From Acutalibacteraceae bacterium (GTDB taxonomy: Bacteria > Bacillota > Clostridia > Oscillospirales > Acutalibacteraceae): DNA of 51,491 nucleotides. The position numbers and the translations under genes were made by a program. Numbering within the stretch: the stretch's first letter is position 1; each line of letters begins with the position of its first letter. The stretch spans positions 1 through 51,491 of the forward strand of contig JAZRQN010000013.1 of assembly GCA_045649855.1 (NCBI GenBank). The letters run 5' to 3'. The notes under the pieces were generated by a model. It saw only the letters and a list, made by a program, of their open reading frames with translations. It had not been told where the DNA came from and did no database searches. This document shows, piece after piece, positions 24,442 through 44,631 of this stretch.

Positions 24442-25674
24442 ATGCGTAAAAGTATTCAGGCGATTACAGCGTTGATTGGTTTGTCGCTTTGCTTTATATG
24501 GAGTTTGATTATTTATTACGATTATAATATGCCAATGCAGTTCAGCGTTACGCAGGGAAAAGAATTGGTGTTGGACGGCATTGTACAGGTTTGCGATTTG
24601 GATGTGTTTTCTGCAAAACAGGTGGTGGCAGGATCGGAAAACACGGTGCAACGCGCATCTTTACGCGTGTTTGGTGTGTTTCCTGTGAAAGAGATCAGCG
24701 TAAAAACGGTGGAGCAGCCCGTTGTGGTGGTGGCAGGAACGCCGTTTGGTATCAAGATGTATACGGACGGTGTGCTGGTGGTTGGGCTTTCGGACGTGGA
24801 AACTGCATCCGGCCCGTGCAATCCTGCACGGATAGCTGGGTTGAAAATAGGGGACGTTGTGTTAGCAGTTAATGGTCAAGGTGTCAGCACAAATGCGGCT
24901 TTACGAGAAATGATCGAGCAATCAGCAGGCGAACAACTGGAATTGCGGATTCGACGGGACAATCTGATTTTTACGGTCAAGTTTCGCGCAGTGCTGTCCG
25001 CGACCGAGAAGCGGTATCGTTCCGGCTTTTGGGTGAGGGATAGTTCTGCAGGAATCGGTACGCTGACGTTCTACGATCCGCAGACACGTGTGTTTGGCGG
25101 TCTTGGGCATGCGGTTTGTGATGTTGACACCAATGAAAGATTACCGATTTCAACCGGAGAGATCGTAAGTGCGGAGATCTATGAAGTGGAAAAAGGAACT
25201 GCGGGCGCGGCAGGTAGTCTTGGCGGTGCGGTGAGTGATGAGTTGATTGGGATGCTTTCAATCAATGCAGAAACGGGAATATATGGTACGCTGACAAAAT
25301 TACCGCACAGCGGCTTTTTAACAATGCCGATAGCACTTAAGCAACAGGTGAAAGAAGGGTATGCACAGGTATATACGACCGTGGAAGGTACGCAACCGCA
25401 ATATTATGATATCAAAATTGAGCAAATTCGGTATCGGGACGCTTCTCCGACCAAGAATATGATTATCCGTATTACCGATCCGGATTTGTTACAACAAACG
25501 GGCGGTATCGTGCAGGGGATGAGCGGTTCACCCATCATCCAGGATGGTAAACTGGTCGGTGCAATTACCCATGTTTTGGTAAATGACCCGACAAAAGGGT
25601 ATGCAATCTTCGCAGAGAATATGCTCGAAACCGCTCAAAGTGTGGCAGATGAAAAATTAAAGGAAGCATCGTAA
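24442..25674 (+). CDS. spoIVB: Stage IV sporulation protein B, SpoIVB (S55 serine peptidase with PDZ domain)
   Basis: Part of ORF 24373..25674. Start set at ATG 24442 after AGAGGTG. Signal-anchor helix, PDZ (GLKIGDVVLAVNG), His region GGLGHAV and catalytic Ser GMSGSPII. Confidence 0.92.
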   Translation: MRKSIQAITALIGLSLCFIWSLIIYYDYNMPMQFSVTQGKELVLDGIVQVCDLDVFSAKQVVAGSENTVQRASLRVFGVFPVKEISVKTVEQPVVVVAGTPFGIKMYTDGVLVVGLSDVETASGPCNPARIAGLKIGDVVLAVNGQGVSTNAALREMIEQSAGEQLELRIRRDNLIFTVKFRAVLSATEKRYRSGFWVRDSSAGIGTLTFYDPQTRVFGGLGHAVCDVDTNERLPISTGEIVSAEIYEVEKGTAGAAGSLGGAVSDELIGMLSINAETGIYGTLTKLPHSGFLTMPIALKQQVKEGYAQVYTTVEGTQPQYYDIKIEQIRYRDASPTKNMIIRITDPDLLQQTGGIVQGMSGSPIIQDGKLVGAITHVLVNDPTKGYAIFAENMLETAQSVADEKLKEAS

Positions 25675-25685
25675 AATTAAATATT

Positions 25686-25714
25686 GTAGGGGACGATGCC
25701 CACATCGTCCCGAA
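25686..25714 (+). repeat. REP-like element copy 1 (GTAG + 9-bp hairpin)
   Basis: GTAG-GGGACGATG-CCCA-CATCGTCCC-GAA. The 29 nt are identical to the reverse complement of 26048-26076. Confidence 0.8.
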
Positions 25715-25716
25715 TA

Positions 25717-25750
25717 ACAAAAAACCAAGGGTTAATCACCTTGGGTTTTG
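25717..25750. terminator. Bidirectional terminator shared by spoIVB (+) and the RAYT-like gene (-)
   Basis: AAAAACCAAGG-GTTAATCA-CCTTGGGTTTT, with an A-run and a T-run on each side. The TAA stop of the minus-strand gene (25732-25734) lies in the loop. Confidence 0.6.
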
Positions 25751-26190
25751 TGTGTTAATATCCATTTTTTAGGGTTGTTTTCGATATATTCAAAAATTTC
25801 ATTGTAATCTTTTTGATTGCGAATTATATGGTCGTAATATGAGCGTTGAAAAATCGGGTTGCCTATTTCCTTTGTTGTTAATGTTTTAATTGAACGAACA
25901 ATATTTGAAATCCTGTTTGTAGGGGTCGATGCCCGCATCGACCCGTTTTCAATTTGCATAATCATATGTATATGGTCGGGCATTATGACATATTTTTTAA
26001 TTTCAGAAACATTACGGATATATTTTTCAACGATTGTTCCGTATTTTTTCGGGACGATGTGGGCATCGTCCCCTACGATATCACATAATATTCGTTTTCT
26101 ATCTTTAACACATATCGTAATAAAATATGCGCCCTTTTTTGAATAATCAAAATTTTCTAATCTATTATGTTTTCTATAGGGTAAATCCAT
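25732..26190 (-). CDS. REP-associated tyrosine transposase-like protein (RAYT / IS200-type Y1 HUH transposase homologue)
   Basis: Part of ORF 25732..26268. Start set at MDLPYRKHNRL (ATG 26190). HUH motif PDHIHMIM and catalytic-Tyr region FQRSYYDHIIRNQKDYNEIFEYIENNPKKW. Confidence 0.8.
   Translation of the reverse strand: MDLPYRKHNRLENFDYSKKGAYFITICVKDRKRILCDIVGDDAHIVPKKYGTIVEKYIRNVSEIKKYVIMPDHIHMIMQIENGSMRASTPTNRISNIVRSIKTLTTKEIGNPIFQRSYYDHIIRNQKDYNEIFEYIENNPKKWILTHKTQGD
25919..25944 (+). repeat. REP-like element copy 2, inside the RAYT-like CDS
   Basis: GTAG-GGGTCGATG-CCCG-CATCGACCC. Compared with copy 1 the stem carries a compensatory A>T / T>A pair. Translated antisense as GSMRASTPT. Confidence 0.8.
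26048..26076 (-). repeat. REP-like element copy 3, inside the RAYT-like CDS, inverted relative to copies 1 and 2
   Basis: Exact reverse complement of 25686-25714. Translated in the sense direction as VGDDAHIVP. Confidence 0.85.
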
Positions 26191-26206: not shown

Positions 26207-26234
26207 ATTATACCATAAATTAAAAATATTGCAA
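26207..26234 (-). promoter_or_regulatory. Putative sigma-A promoter of the RAYT-like gene
   Basis: On the minus strand: TTGCAA, 16-nt spacer, TATAAT, with a TGg extended -10. The -10 lies only about 17 nt from the ATG, so the leader would be very short. Confidence 0.4.
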
Positions 26235-26257
26235 TTCGTGAAAAACTGTGATAAACT
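26229..26257 (+). promoter_or_regulatory. Putative divergent sigma-A promoter sharing the palindromic -35 TTGCAA
   Basis: TTGCAA, 17-nt spacer, TAAACT, with a TGa extended -10. The predicted start near 26264 coincides with the first base of the long inverted repeat. Confidence 0.4.
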
Positions 26258-26263
26258 AATAGT

Positions 26264-26485
26264 GCCAAACTAACTGAATATTGTGTGAAATTGGGTGTAT
26301 TTTCTTTTTATGGGATAATTACGCTTTTTTTGCGTATCCTATGAATCGTTATGAATTTGATAAAAATGCAAATTCCAACGATTTGTAGGTGGGTACGCCC
26401 CATTTCACACTCGGTTAGTTTGGCGACTATCGGAGTTTGCGTTTTTTGTGCGGTTACTTCGGTAGCCGCACTTTTTTATTTTTAG
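26264..26485 (+). ncRNA. Candidate structured RNA or cis-regulatory leader (unclassified)
   Basis: Closing stem 26264-26274/26414-26424 (11 bp) plus 26283-26291/26402-26410 (9 bp). Two internal hairpins (about 26312-26339 and 26344-26383). Terminator GTGCGGTTAC-TTCG-GTAGCCGCAC followed by TTTTTT at 26448-26477. No known family recognised. Confidence 0.25.
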
Positions 26486-26520: not shown

Positions 26521-26877
26521 GTGGAAACAATTTTATCAATTATCGCGTTAGTTATTTCTTTGATTTCGGGTGGTTTTACTTTTTATACTTTTTGGTGGAC
26601 AAATCGACGAGATAGAAGACAAGCAACTCTTGAAGCATATAACCGATTACAAACCGAAGTTTTTGACAACCTTAATTCTTACACTCCTACTGAAATACGG
26701 GATATTTGTACCGATGTAAAATCACCCGAATATAAAACCATCAGTGGCTATGTTGCGAGAATAGAACATTTTTGTGAACACAGGGGACGGTTCTCTGTGT
26801 TAAAACCCGCAACACCCGCCCTGAATTTCAGGGTGGGTGTTTCTCTAATATGTAGAAACTTGTTGGTCCTATATTGA
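26521..26877 (+). pseudogene. Hypothetical ORF, probably a 5' gene fragment
   Basis: GTG start after GAGGTG. An N-terminal TM helix and about 85 plausible residues. From about 26775 onward the reading frame runs through two hairpin/terminator-like sequences (26781-26803 and 26811-26843) and gives low-complexity text. Confidence 0.35.
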
Positions 26878-26885
26878 CATACTCG

Positions 26886-27040
26886 TGAGCGGTTCACCCA
26901 TCATCCAGGATAGTAAACTGGTTGGCGCTGTTACGCATGTTCTGGTCAATGATCCGACCAAAGGGTACGCTATATTCGCAGAGAATATGTACGAGACAGC
27001 GCAAAGTGTAACAGGAGAAAACTTGAAAGTAGCATCATAA
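26886..27040 (+). pseudogene. Orphan 3' fragment of spoIVB (last 51 codons incl. stop)
   Basis: Collinear with 25520-25674 without indels. Encodes (V)[50 protein letters not shown]. No start or SD, and an in-frame stop lies at 26846-26848. Confidence 0.85.
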
Positions 27041-27042
27041 AC

Positions 27043-43656: not shown

Positions 43657-44631
43657 GTGGGTTACAAACATTTAAAATTTCCCGAAAACAGTGTGTTTTT
43701 GGTAACGGGTGCCGCCGGCTTTATCGGCTCTAACCTGTGTGAAGCGATTCTCGATATGGGGTATACCGTCCGTGCTTTGGATGACTTGTCCACCGGCAAG
43801 CAAGCAAATGTAGATATGTTTGCCAACAATCCGAATTACACCTTCATAAAGGGTGATATCAAAGATCTTGATACCTGTATGAAGGCGTGCGAGGGTGTTG
43901 ATTACGTTCTCAATCAGGCTGCGTGGGGCAGTGTGCCGCGCTCAATTGAAATGCCGTTGTTCTATTGCAGAAACAATATAGAGGGCACGCTCAATATGCT
44001 GGAGGCCGCTCGCCAAATGGGTGTCAAGAAGTTTGTGTACGCTTCCAGTTCCTCGGTGTACGGCGATGAACCCAATTTGCCCAAAACAGAGGGAAGAGAG
44101 GGCAATTTGCTTTCTCCCTATGCACTGACTAAGCGCTGTGATGAAGAATGGGCGAAACTGTATACCAAGCTGTACGGCTTGGATACCTACGGTATGCGGT
44201 ATTTTAACGTGTTTGGCCGCAGACAGGATCCCGATGGCGCGTATGCGGCAGTGATCCCGAAATTCTTGAAACAGTTGATGAACGGTGAGACCCCCACCAT
44301 CAACGGCGACGGCAAACAAAGCCGCGATTTCACCTATGTGGATAACGTGATCGAAGCGAATTTTAGAGCTTGTCTCGCGCCGAGCGAGGCGGCAGGCGAA
44401 GCGTTTAATATTGCGTACGGCGGTAGAGAATATCTGATCGATATTTACTACGGTCTTACCAAGGCACTGAACGTGGATATTGAACCGCATTTCGGCCCCG
44501 ACCGTAAAGGCGATATTAAGCATTCTAACGCGGACATTTCCAAAGCTCGTCGTTTGCTTGGATATGACCCCGATTATAGTTTTAAAGACGGCATTAAGCT
44601 TGCCATTGAGTGGTATAAGGAGAATTTGTAA
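43657..44631 (+). CDS. NAD-dependent UDP-N-acetylhexosamine(uronate) 4-epimerase (TviC/WbpP/CapI-like SDR)
   Basis: 324 aa with a GTG start. LVTGAAGFIGSNL, SSSSVYG, SPYALTK (YxxxK) and RYFNVFGRRQDP. Confidence 0.85.
   Translation: MGYKHLKFPENSVFLVTGAAGFIGSNLCEAILDMGYTVRALDDLSTGKQANVDMFANNPNYTFIKGDIKDLDTCMKACEGVDYVLNQAAWGSVPRSIEMPLFYCRNNIEGTLNMLEAARQMGVKKFVYASSSSVYGDEPNLPKTEGREGNLLSPYALTKRCDEEWAKLYTKLYGLDTYGMRYFNVFGRRQDPDGAYAAVIPKFLKQLMNGETPTINGDGKQSRDFTYVDNVIEANFRACLAPSEAAGEAFNIAYGGREYLIDIYYGLTKALNVDIEPHFGPDRKGDIKHSNADISKARRLLGYDPDYSFKDGIKLAIEWYKENL

Follow-up and report, generated by a model that had tools for sequence, protein, structure and literature searches.

RAYT enzymes and REP sequences are the classic example of a domesticated transposase that coexists with a population of short repeats. 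In IS200/IS605 elements, the sub-terminal left-end and right-end hairpins are located outside tnpA and on the same strand. The canonical REPtron is that of E. coli RayT/TnpAREP (Ton-Hoang 2012, PMC3333891; Messing 2012, PMC3479197; structure 4ER8), where a C-terminal extension of the enzyme binds GTAG and the active site (Messing 2012, PMC3479197). Canonical RAYT genes are described as always having two inverted flanking REPs, and a REP inside the ORF is not reported (Nunvar 2010, PMC2817692). The published analyses of REPINs and RAYT groups cover extragenic flanks only (PMC3116915, PMC5581495). Among the RAYT groups, group 1 is found in Clostridia and shows few repeated 16-mers in its flanks (Bertels et al. 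2017, PMC5581495). The group 3 REP of S. maltophilia, which is bound and cleaved by its RAYT, is a 23 nt unit in which GTAG precedes a perfect stem of 8 bp with a 3-nt loop (PMC8266576).

We analyzed a contig of 51,491 nt from an Acutalibacteraceae bacterium, referred to as the window, in which a predicted RAYT gene carries two inverted REP copies in its own reading frame. The features of the locus are as follows:

25686..25712, plus strand: extragenic REP copy, beyond the stops of RAYT (by 20 nt) and spoIVB (by 11 nt)
25725..25744: terminator-like hairpin, bidirectional, which overlaps the RAYT stop where spoIVB and RAYT converge
25732..26190, minus strand: RAYT/TnpAREP-like gene, 152 codons from ATG
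25786-25788, minus strand: presumed catalytic tyrosine Y135, aligned to the catalytic Y115 of 4ER8
25919..25945, plus strand: intragenic REP copy 2 (seg2), a GTAG-hairpin on the non-coding strand, GTAGGGGTCGATGCCCGCATCGACCCG
25945..26050, minus strand: spacer between the intragenic REPs, 106 nt, encoding helix 49-59, strand 64-69 and the HUH strand 73-80
25966-25974, minus strand: HUH motif, H73-I74-H75
26050..26076, minus strand: intragenic REP copy 1 (seg1), a GTAG-hairpin on the coding strand, 27-nt unit GTAGGGGACGATGCCCACATCGTCCCG
26207..26234, minus strand: promoter-like site ahead of the RAYT start, made up of TTGCAA, 16 nt and a TG-extended TATAAT

A sequence-only reading of this stretch had proposed that the gene is RAYT-like, and profile, structure and fold matches agree on this. 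The protein matches Pfam Y1_Tnp (PF01797) with 26.5 bits against a cut-off of 23 (E 7.4e-6). With NCBIfam REP_Tyr_transpos (NF047646) it scores 75.8 bits (E 3e-21), just under the 80-bit equivalog cut-off, and with the NCBIfam IS200 model 26.6 bits, far under the cut-off of 55. The best solved-structure match in a PDB profile search was 4ER8, TnpAREP bound to REP (E 2.3e-8). The same structure was the top Foldseek match of an AlphaFold2 model (E 2.5e-8, TM 0.56), followed by the IS608 and ISDra2 TnpA structures. The model had a pLDDT of 91.9 when built with 89 diverse representatives and of 56 with 32 close homologues. H73, H75 and Y135 are invariant in the homologue alignments A1 and A5. The search with this protein gave 4386 homologues, and two close ones are named “REP element-mobilizing transposase RayT” by a JGI source; the exact protein was not on record in an exact-protein lookup. 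By sequence and predicted fold, the gene is a RAYT, that is, a TnpAREP-like HUH/Tyr single-strand DNA enzyme. A second copy of the gene is not found within the 51 kb window.

The alignment to 4ER8 stops at query residue 145, which corresponds to residue 125 of the 165-residue chain and leaves 7 query residues. The E. coli-type C-terminal extension (about 25 aa, E161) is thus missing from the 152-aa protein, which is shorter than E. coli TnpAREP and without its autoinhibitory tail. As this extension helps to hold GTAG in the E. coli enzyme, the mode of recognition may be a different one here. The promoter-like site matches the consensus at 10 of 12 positions in a consensus scan and is a putative element only. 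No Rfam family reached its gathering score in the window, and a permissive E-value gave only chance-level matches to long hairpins.

The outer copy of the hairpin, GTAGGGGACGATGCCCACATCGTCCC, is the 26-mer at 25686-25711 on the plus strand. Its exact reverse complement is found at 26051-26076, the two being identical over 29 nt and to 95% over 37 nt. The third copy, GTAGGGGTCGATGCCCGCATCGACCC at 25919-25944 on the plus strand, has three mismatches to the 26-mer, of which two form a compensated A>T/T>A stem pair and one is a loop base. These three matches with at most three mismatches compare to 0.00 expected from 100 shuffles of the window. In the complete unit of 27 nt, the 5′ GTAG is followed by a perfect stem of 9 bp with a loop of 4 nt, and a G closes the unit. 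Folding each copy as ssDNA gives this stem and loop, with energies of -9.3 to -10.7 kcal/mol (z -3.6 to -5.0). The hairpins have a GC content of 65–69% against 27% in the remaining RAYT CDS, and a generic scan of the 51 kb window detected no further elements with GTAG and a GC-rich hairpin.

The two intragenic copies are separated by 106 nt and have opposite orientations. Seg1 is translated in sense as VGDDAHIVP (residues 39-47) and seg2 is read antisense as GSMRASTPT (residues 83-91). Most of this had been described in the sequence-only reading. The copy positions and the 29-nt identity, the REP architecture with a palindrome behind a 5′ GTAG, the two peptides in a 152-codon ORF and the placing of one copy before the HUH motif and the other just after it are all reproduced by our sequence comparison and ORF translation. 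So is the compensatory stem change in the third copy, to which the loop-base difference has to be added. The suggestion that the copies sit in tolerant surface loops does not hold for seg1, whose peptide makes up the turn and the second strand of a beta-hairpin that AlphaFold2 models with confidence. The seg2 peptide is found in the loop joining the HUH strand to the next helix (pLDDT 67), where it adds 7 residues compared with 4ER8.

We compared 81 homologous genes from 80 genome loci of Oscillospirales and related Clostridia. A GTAG-hairpin at seg1 together with its reverse complement at seg2 was found in 72 of the 81, and the embedded hairpins have 43 distinct cores. Nine genes are without one or both internal copies, which indicates that the pair is not indispensable. 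The sites and the orientation are constant and retention is ∼90%, though the proteins have diverged to 35–40% identity, and the spacer is 106–108 nt of coding sequence including the HUH motif. Isolates with the pair include Ruminococcus flavefaciens YL228 and SAb67 and Monoglobus pectinilyticus. Of the 150 best cluster representatives, 44 showed reverse-complement compatibility at the protein level, in runs of at least 8 residues, as did none of 150 shuffled sequences. Many of the homologous loci also have a REP copy at the position of the outer copy, likewise antisense. Extra in-frame tandem copies are present at these same two sites in loci L005, L007, L027, L050, and L069, and some MAG contigs have two paralogues that each carry their own REP type (L011, L052, and L053).

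On a protein tree with both segments masked, each REP type is a single clade. Both peptide segments vary by lineage exactly as the translation of the hairpin and of its reverse complement, as the sequence-only reading had asked of homologues. The embedded REP type co-diverges with the enzyme; RAYT and REP type are co-inherited and co-diverge in the RAYT groups as well (PMC5581495). Taken together, we conclude that the embedded pair is a conserved clade trait and not a peculiarity of one gene, and that a clade of predicted Clostridia RAYTs (Oscillospirales, Monoglobales) carries its putative cognate REP in frame at two fixed places. The RAYT-REP system itself is known; what is new is the inverted pair inside the ORF across a clade. 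In the RAYT/REP literature searched, no description of an embedded REP pair was found.

The likeness to the E. coli REPtron extends to the fold, the HUH and Tyr residues, the 5′ GTAG followed by a palindrome, the REP copy beside the gene and the inverted REP doublets elsewhere. In contrast to E. coli, the inverted pair is inside the ORF and translated, flanking copies are optional, and the stem is perfect whereas E. coli TnpAREP requires a bulge. The E. coli control, the annotated rayT on NZ_CP104632.1, has no REP inside its ORF. A Y1 HUH enzyme and ssDNA hairpins with a 5′ guide tetranucleotide are shared with IS200/IS605 (IS608 and ISDra2 TnpA), but here the hairpins lie inside the gene and on opposite strands, so the organization is not that of IS200/IS605. 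As in REPINs (PMC3116915), the unit consists of two inverted REPs and a spacer; unlike in REPINs, the spacer of the intragenic pair is essential coding sequence with the HUH motif. The hairpins inside genes fall into two main classes, and one of them, with an 8-bp stem, a 3-nt loop and 23 nt, has the same anatomy as the group 3 REPs of S. maltophilia and Marinomonas. Group 3 REPs are described only as extragenic and high-copy (Corneloup 2021, PMC8266576), whereas these are intragenic. Rickettsia palindromic elements and intragenic GTAG/CGTC REPs (PMC3733652) are also in frame, translated and presumably at tolerant sites. However, they are scattered over unrelated genes, while here the host gene is that of the cognate enzyme, the sites and orientation are fixed clade-wide and the constraint is at the nucleotide level. 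RAYT genes are not named among the genes carrying such insertions (Di Nocera 2013, PMC3733652).

The pattern of substitutions points to selection on the nucleotide hairpin and GTAG, with the encoded peptides as passengers. Synonymous codon identity reaches 95% in seg1 and 83% in seg2, compared to 53% in the remainder of the gene. Pairing holds in all 180 stem cells, double changes occur in 7 of the 9 stem pairs, and covariation scores 0.81 as opposed to 0.19 for shuffles. GTAG is invariant or almost so in alignments A3 and A4. When seg1 is compared to seg2 within single genes, 11 compensated double changes are seen against 7 single-sided ones. The argument from a compensatory change, made in the sequence-only reading for one copy, therefore generalizes to the clade. 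The same element is also read in two frames at seg1 and in three at seg2, e.g., RGELCSP vs. VGANCVRP and ..VPY or ..PLQ vs. ..PT.

These data bear on three other explanations. It is very improbable that VGDDAHIVP and GSMRASTPT matter as peptides and that the DNA palindromy is a by-product. VGDDAHIVP is almost invariant among the closest 31 homologues and seg1 is confidently modelled as a beta-hairpin, but the peptides are wholly different between lineages and yet always a word and its reverse complement. The residues covary (S/T, T/S, A/P) as stem compensation predicts, and the frozen synonymous sites together with the translation of the same DNA in other frames rule out conservation at the peptide level. 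Regulation by RNA structure deserves more weight but is still unlikely. Here the mRNA structure, either as local hairpins or as a long seg1:seg2 duplex hiding the HUH-coding part, would limit translation or stability of a possibly harmful nuclease independently of RAYT recognition. Structure often throttles transposase mRNAs, IS200 being the established example. Seg1 and seg2 are perfectly complementary in 21 of 50 genes, and in the RNA minimum free energy structure of 25900-26095 (minus strand) seg1 pairs with seg2 (-58.5 kcal/mol, z -5.1). However, a mere RNA hairpin needs neither the invariant GTAG outside the stem nor identity to the extragenic REP, and enzyme and hairpin type diverge together. 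Where seg1 and seg2 differ, compensation takes place inside each hairpin, so it is the local hairpin that is kept while seg1:seg2 complementarity is broken, and we rejected long-range pairing as the main constraint. Hardly credible, finally, is an invertible switch, in which RAYT flips the 158-nt inter-REP segment to give a second isoform without HUH. The reverse complement of GTAG..CTAC in the window is stop-free in the correct frame, VGVDARIDPFSICIIICIWSG...GTMWASSPT, but just 4 of 56 homologues have this frame open, where codon-order shuffles predict 1.9. The isoform was rejected on this ground.

The sequence-only reading had reasoned that a REP should be multi-copy, and on metagenome contigs this is the case. 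The exact 26-mer is found on more than 120 contigs, mostly far from any RAYT; a RAYT is encoded in only 3 of 120 fetched loci, and the copies number 185 in 660 kb. Many of these copies form inverted doublets with GTAG outward, the orientation that the intragenic pair also has, and their start-to-start spacing peaks at ∼79 and ∼53 nt. One family of 105-nt extragenic doublets has a common conserved spacer, unrelated to that of the intragenic pair. Both of the two extragenic doublet loci checked by hand lie between ORFs. In a comparison for ORF avoidance, the stop-free span around extragenic REPs had a median of 151 vs. 327 codons, which is ambiguous. The extragenic REP consensus is tcGTAGGGGACGATGCCCACATCGTCCCG, and no fixed CT cleavage dinucleotide was found in the REP flanks. 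Thus, the three 26-mers in the window are copies of a genuine REP. It is scarce in the window, with one extragenic copy in 51 kb, and distant copies are also sparse in the homologous genome loci, at about 16 in 1.15 Mb. A link to phages is not seen, as 2.9 million viral contigs gave only 5 relatives and 8 exact REP matches.

Instead of the canonical inverted REPs on both sides, the window RAYT has a 3′ REP only. In the clade, 42 of 75 genes have no GTAG-hairpin within 300 nt and 4 of 75 have one on both sides; the canonical flanking pair is mostly absent. Flanking REPs were found for all 6 testable genes without the internal pair compared to 25 of 69 with it (p = 0.004), an association that rests on 6 genes, two of them near-identical, and was computed with the inverted-repeat classification, as the generic hairpin detector overlooks interrupted stems. 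The outgroup RAYTs (Leptolinea, Spirosoma, Fulvitalea, E. coli), which include Chloroflexota and Bacteroidota, have repeats in the flanks only. No partial copies of the flanking palindromes were found inside the Leptolinea, Spirosoma, and Fulvitalea RAYT genes. The outgroup peptide RVSTPS resembles RASTPT, but there is no corresponding match at the DNA level. An internal location of the REPs would explain the scarce flanking 16-mers of group 1 RAYTs, and so perhaps the apparent dearth of flanking repeats in some Clostridia RAYT groups.

We lean, with modest confidence, toward the joint reading that the RAYT gene embeds its cognate REP pair, selected as DNA, and that the two copies are cis-linked recognition sites of the enzyme in place of flanking REPs. 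When the gene becomes single-stranded in replication or transcription, each strand would present one GTAG-hairpin that RAYT could bind. Enzyme and substrate specificity would then be one indivisible heritable unit, and a transferred gene would bring its own REP. The enzyme, or the hairpins themselves, would probably throttle RAYT expression too.

A serious alternative, although we hold it to be improbable, is passive colonization. Selfish REPs would have inserted once at two tolerant sites of an ancestral RAYT gene and would have stayed REP-like only through repeated overwriting from the REP population, by RAYT-mediated strand exchange, gene conversion or re-insertion beside an existing REP, with no benefit to the enzyme or the host. 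In-frame intragenic REPs are known in unrelated genes (Di Nocera 2013, PMC3733652). The tandem in-frame extras and the change of frame between lineages resemble repeated insertion or replacement, the pair is lost in 9 of 81 genes, and REP-mediated damage is seen in a deletion variant without HUH. Set against this are the fixed sites and orientation with ∼90% retention at 35–40% protein identity, and the tendency of genes without the pair toward flanking REPs. Within one gene the two copies can carry different compensated changes, which speaks for evolution in place under structural constraint and not for overwriting. Conversion tracts limited to a 27-nt repeat within unique flanks are mechanistically unlikely, given the minimal homology for recombination.

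A further step from the joint reading, which we offer only tentatively and consider doubtful, would have the intragenic pair serve both as heritable master copy (seed) for the REP/REPIN population and as an obligatory cis-site of the enzyme. If so, an enzyme acting on single-strand DNA would share ∼460 bp with its substrate, extragenic REPs could be re-founded from the gene after loss or horizontal transfer, and the enzyme could sense or limit itself via its own gene. Each RAYT of the clade would spell its own site, giving thousands of natural enzyme-site pairs with which to decipher the hairpin-recognition code of HUH/Y1 enzymes.

The matching of enzyme and repeat over long times appears in this clade to be written into the gene itself. 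The cognate REP of each such RAYT could then be read from the gene alone, and would be visible in protein databases as two peptides, one encodable by a DNA word and the other by its reverse complement. This would amount to a large body of natural data on RAYT specificity. The embedded pair is also an instance of layered selection, where DNA structure overrides codon and even amino-acid choice within a coding gene. As a practical matter, the inverted copies produce fold-back assembly chimeras and deletion variants. One such variant, P0194, is without HUH, and REP-mediated damage is visible in it.

Three copies of a REP-like GTAG hairpin were found in and beside the gene for a REP-associated tyrosine transposase-like protein (RAYT). 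No match to the 26-mer is expected by chance in the window.

25686-25711, plus strand: outer, extragenic copy, 26-mer GTAGGGGACGATGCCCACATCGTCCC
25732-26190, minus strand: RAYT ORF of 152 codons, HUH motif at residues 73-75
25919-25944: internal copy seg2, GTAG on the non-coding strand, three mismatches to the 26-mer, translated as GSMRASTPT (residues 83-91)
26051-26076: internal copy seg1, GTAG on the coding strand, exact reverse complement of the outer copy, translated as VGDDAHIVP (residues 39-47)

The outer copy matches seg1 without a difference over 29 nt and at 95% identity over 37 nt. Three positions set the third copy apart, two of which form a compensated A-T to T-A stem pair while one is a loop base. 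All features described in the sequence-only reading, i.e., three copies, a compensated stem pair and two in-frame internal copies around HUH, are present. Folded as single-stranded DNA, every copy forms a hairpin with 9 bp in the stem and 4 nt in the loop (-9.3 to -10.7 kcal/mol, z -3.6 to -5.0). The GC content is 65-69% in the hairpins, 27% in the remaining RAYT coding sequence and 45% in the whole window. A generic scan of the 51 kb revealed no GTAG followed by a GC-rich hairpin beyond these three. The scan also caught a palindrome at 44423-44451 (AAATATCGATCAGATATTT) with GTAG flanks on both strands, which is AT-rich and unrelated to the REP.

The protein matches Pfam Y1_Tnp above threshold. 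It scores 75.8 bits with the NCBIfam model REP_Tyr_transpos, slightly below the cut-off of 80, and only 26.6 bits with the IS200 model. Among solved structures, a profile of close homologues matched E. coli TnpAREP (4ER8) best, with Y135 aligned to the catalytic Y115. An AlphaFold2 model built from 89 diverse representatives was confident (pLDDT 91.9), and its best fold match was again 4ER8, followed by the ISDra2 and IS608 TnpA structures. The enzyme is related to RAYT/TnpAREP and predicted to work alike. E. coli TnpAREP is longer and has an autoinhibitory C-terminal tail that the window protein lacks. In the model, a beta-hairpin follows strand 1 (residues 36-47, pLDDT about 96), and seg1 supplies its turn and second strand. 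Seg2 forms the lowest-confidence loop (pLDDT 67), between the HUH strand and a long helix equivalent to alpha-C, the helix that sits in the minor groove of the REP hairpin in 4ER8 (Messing 2012, PMC3479197).

Homologues of the protein are numerous: a search of one database at E <=1e-3 gave 4386, and a second database gave 17,832 cluster representatives. We sampled 80 genome loci at 34-86% identity from Oscillospiraceae, Acutalibacteraceae, Ruminococcus, Faecousia and other Clostridia. The peptides at the two sites are wholly different between lineages, and they always pair as translations of a DNA word and its reverse complement:

Peptide pairs at seg1 and seg2 in homologues
VGDDAHIVP with GTMWASSPT
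VGTGVPDCP with GQSRTPVPT
VGGGALDAP with GTSRAPSPT
VGNAALGVP with GTPRAAFPT
VGADIIRP with GRMISAPT
VGATIGRP with GRPMVAPT

In the DNA, an inverted pair of 19-34 nt occupies the two sites in 72 of 81 genes; 68 of these internal pairs start with GTAGG and there are 43 distinct cores. The pair is also present in the cultured isolates R. flavefaciens YL228 and SAb67 and in Monoglobus pectinilyticus, and is therefore not an artefact of metagenome-assembled genomes. Judged from the protein sequences alone, a single DNA word and its reverse complement could encode the two segments, over runs of 8 residues or more, in 44 of the 150 top-ranking cluster representatives; among 150 shuffled sequences this was true of none. 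The count of 44 is a lower bound, as this test requires perfect complementarity. The segments are thus lineage-specific and track the hairpin word and its reverse complement, which supports the earlier interpretation of presumed substrate hairpins embedded in the coding sequence and widens its scope from a single gene to a clade. In M. pectinilyticus (NZ_OY725736.1 153818-157273, locus L205), the RAYT gene with its internal pair lies between two CDSs both annotated as site-specific DNA-methyltransferase, as if inserted into a methyltransferase gene. Its annotated CDS begins downstream of seg1, and the annotation therefore probably truncates the gene.

Among 16 loci with the hairpin type of the window, conserved amino acids are encoded by identical codons in 95% of cases in seg1, 83% in seg2 and 53% in the rest of the gene. 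In 20 distinct 26-mers every stem cell is paired, with double changes in 7 of 9 pairs. Covariation scores 0.81, compared with 0.19 for shuffles, in a set chosen as hairpins that covers 125 of 153 GTAG sites at both positions, the remainder having interrupted stems. The covarying residues in the proteins (S..T, T..S, A..P in GxM.ASxPT) match the prediction from stem compensation. Seg1 and seg2 are identical within 21 of 50 genes; in the remaining genes they differ by 11 compensated double, 7 single-sided and 22 loop changes. The preserved structure is the local hairpin and not a pairing of seg1 with seg2. Seg1 is read in two frames, as VG... in 65 genes and as xRGELCSP in 9, the latter encoded by the same word as VGANCVRP elsewhere, and seg2 is read in three. 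Selection acts on the DNA hairpin, not on the peptide.

On a neighbour-joining protein tree with both segments masked, each REP type forms one clade, and on contigs with two paralogues (L011, L052, L053) the REP type differs between them. Canonical RAYT genes have been described as always lying between two inverted REPs (PMC2817692). Here, a GTAG hairpin within 300 nt of the gene was absent in 42 of 75 cases, on one side only in 29 and on both sides in 4. Where found, it is usually antisense and 24-85 nt beyond the stop codon; the outer copy of the window, 20 nt beyond the stop, is likewise antisense. Flanking REPs accompany 6 of 6 testable genes without an internal pair vs. 25 of 69 with one (Fisher p = 0.004; a small sample, with one near-identical pair among the six). 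In Leptolinea (Chloroflexota, 36% identity) GTAG-REPs lie on either side of the gene and none within, Spirosoma and Fulvitalea (Bacteroidota) have long GTAGAGAC... palindromes outside the gene only, and no GC-rich hairpin was found within E. coli rayT. As the outgroup repeats lie solely outside the gene, the internal pair is a derived state of a Clostridia clade. Taken together, we conclude that the cognate REP is carried twice within the gene, on opposite strands and at fixed sites, that it is constrained at the nucleotide level and co-diverges with the enzyme, and that flanking copies are largely dispensable.

The 26-mer was expected to be multi-copy, and this was borne out in metagenomes. 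At least 120 contigs contain the exact sequence; they come from termite gut, human gut and bioreactors. In 660 kb of fetched loci there are 185 copies with up to 4 mismatches. A RAYT homologue is encoded at 3 of the 120 matching loci listed. Many copies form inverted doublets with the GTAGs facing outward and start-to-start distances peaking at about 79 and about 53 nt, including one 105-nt family with a conserved spacer. This is the signature of a REPIN-like population. Doublets were intergenic in both loci inspected (n=2). The 155 distinct extragenic copies give the consensus tcGTAGGGGACGATGCCCACATCGTCCCG, which is 27 nt or 9 codons long. For the window's own genome, the 51 kb show a single extragenic copy, and distant copies are scarce elsewhere, at about 16 across 1.15 Mb of homologous genome loci. 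The 105-nt doublet was seen in metagenome loci L084, L102, L111, L117, L133, L136, L148, L151, L158, L161, L175, L186 and L193, with a 53-nt spacer (...GGGCACCAACGAATTCGCCGAAAATTTTCG...TGCC) in both orientations. The REPs within one such doublet often differ at the same compensated stem position (A-T vs. T-A or G-C), which also separates the two intragenic copies of the window.

Binding by TnpAREP enzymes is specific to the GTAG strand of a REP that is folded in single-stranded DNA; the complementary form is not bound (PMC3479197, PMC8266576). With moderate confidence we infer that the embedded REPs serve as cis-linked recognition sites of the enzyme. One copy per strand would expose a bindable site whichever strand turns single-stranded, and embedding would make enzyme and site inseparable in deletion or transfer. 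It may also throttle expression, by enzyme binding or by the hairpins themselves.

The main rival is that REPs passively colonised two tolerant sites and were homogenised later. The in-frame tandem copies in L005, L007, L027, L050 and L069, the frame changes and the occasional losses of the internal pair favour such a history, but fixed sites and orientation, roughly 90% retention across deep divergence and compensated changes arisen in place make it less likely. That the elements act in regulation as RNA only is more improbable still, as this leaves unexplained both the invariant GTAG and the identity with the extragenic REP. Peptide-level selection was rejected because of the codon identity in the segments (95%/83% vs. 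53%) and the frame changes, and an invertible-isoform switch was also rejected.

In-frame translated palindromic repeats are known from Rickettsia. GTAG/CGTC REPs occur as scattered in-frame insertions in repair genes (PMC3733652). The embedded element has the same anatomy as GTAG REPs, and one embedded hairpin class equals the S. maltophilia group 3 REP (8-bp stem, 3-nt loop, 23 nt in total; PMC8266576). A full-text search of the open-access RAYT/REP literature, including Nunvar 2010, Ton-Hoang 2012, Messing 2012, Di Nocera 2013, Bertels 2017, Quentin 2018 and Corneloup 2021, retrieved no description of REPs inside RAYT genes, which is absence of evidence rather than proof of novelty. We regard this variant of the RAYT-REP system as new and the kind of system as known. 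Group 1 RAYTs are reported to occur in Clostridia and to have few repeated flanking 16-mers (Bertels et al., 2017), which REPs within the gene would explain. The layout provides a direct sequence read-out of enzyme-site pairs and opens the question of RAYT-REP matching to experiment.

Extra REP copies occur in L005 (10001-10525), L007 (10001-10570), L027, L050, L053 and L069 and in proteins P0104 and P0105. Several of these homologues have in-frame tandem copies at the same two sites, with up to three in a row (L050, VGTDAHIGP..VGIDAHIDP..VGTDAHIGP), and others have a further REP copy close to the C-terminus. These genes are longer with the frame intact, resembling a BIME-like expansion within the gene. 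Protein P0194 lacks residues ~44-88, HUH included, and its junction looks like recombination of seg1 with a third, direct REP copy. In P0129 and P0133 the tails after seg2 are reverse-complement translations of their own N-terminal regions, most likely because the inverted REPs led to fold-back chimeras during assembly.

The RAYT gene of the window lies between two copies of the last ~52 codons of spoIVB (peptidase S55), at 25520-25675 and 26886-27041. One ends the intact gene and the other is free-standing 1366 nt downstream; they are 83% identical with mostly synonymous differences. The left edge of the duplicate is sharp (TGAGCGG...), the right edge is the stop codon, and a native-looking terminator follows the downstream copy. 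In L027 (8720-8830 and 10630-10740) the architecture is the same, with a RAYT only 43% identical and another REP type, and in L001 (10499-10633 and 14176-15348) the copies enclose three unrelated genes, with the RAYT outside. The fragment begins at about residue 383 in all three genomes. The pattern resembles a hotspot hit repeatedly by insertions or, alternatively, an integration site of the replacement-3'-end kind whose cargo varies. spoIVB has 47% GC vs. 27% in the RAYT coding sequence outside the hairpins, which together with the duplication suggests acquisition of the RAYT segment from a donor of lower GC.

The segment between the spoIVB ends of the window comprises the REP, the RAYT gene, a long hairpin element and ORF118. 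The element (26255-26485, plus strand) contains a hairpin of about 165 nt with imperfect pairing (arms 26264-26299 and 26394-26424) and, after it, a strong intrinsic terminator (26448-26480); as RNA it folds at -94 kcal/mol (z -11). It matches no Rfam family; its 3' part is 85% identical to L039 9629-9698, about 300 nt upstream of the RAYT there. Possible identities are a small RNA and a MITE-like element. ORF118 (26521-26877, plus strand) has an N-terminal hydrophobic segment and an unconvincing family match (weak DUF4064). Its 3' part crosses a 12-bp GC-rich hairpin at 26813-26839 (CACCCGCCCTGAATTTCAGGGTGGGTG) and stops at the boundary of the duplicated spoIVB fragment; the ORF was probably truncated or fused through the insertion event.
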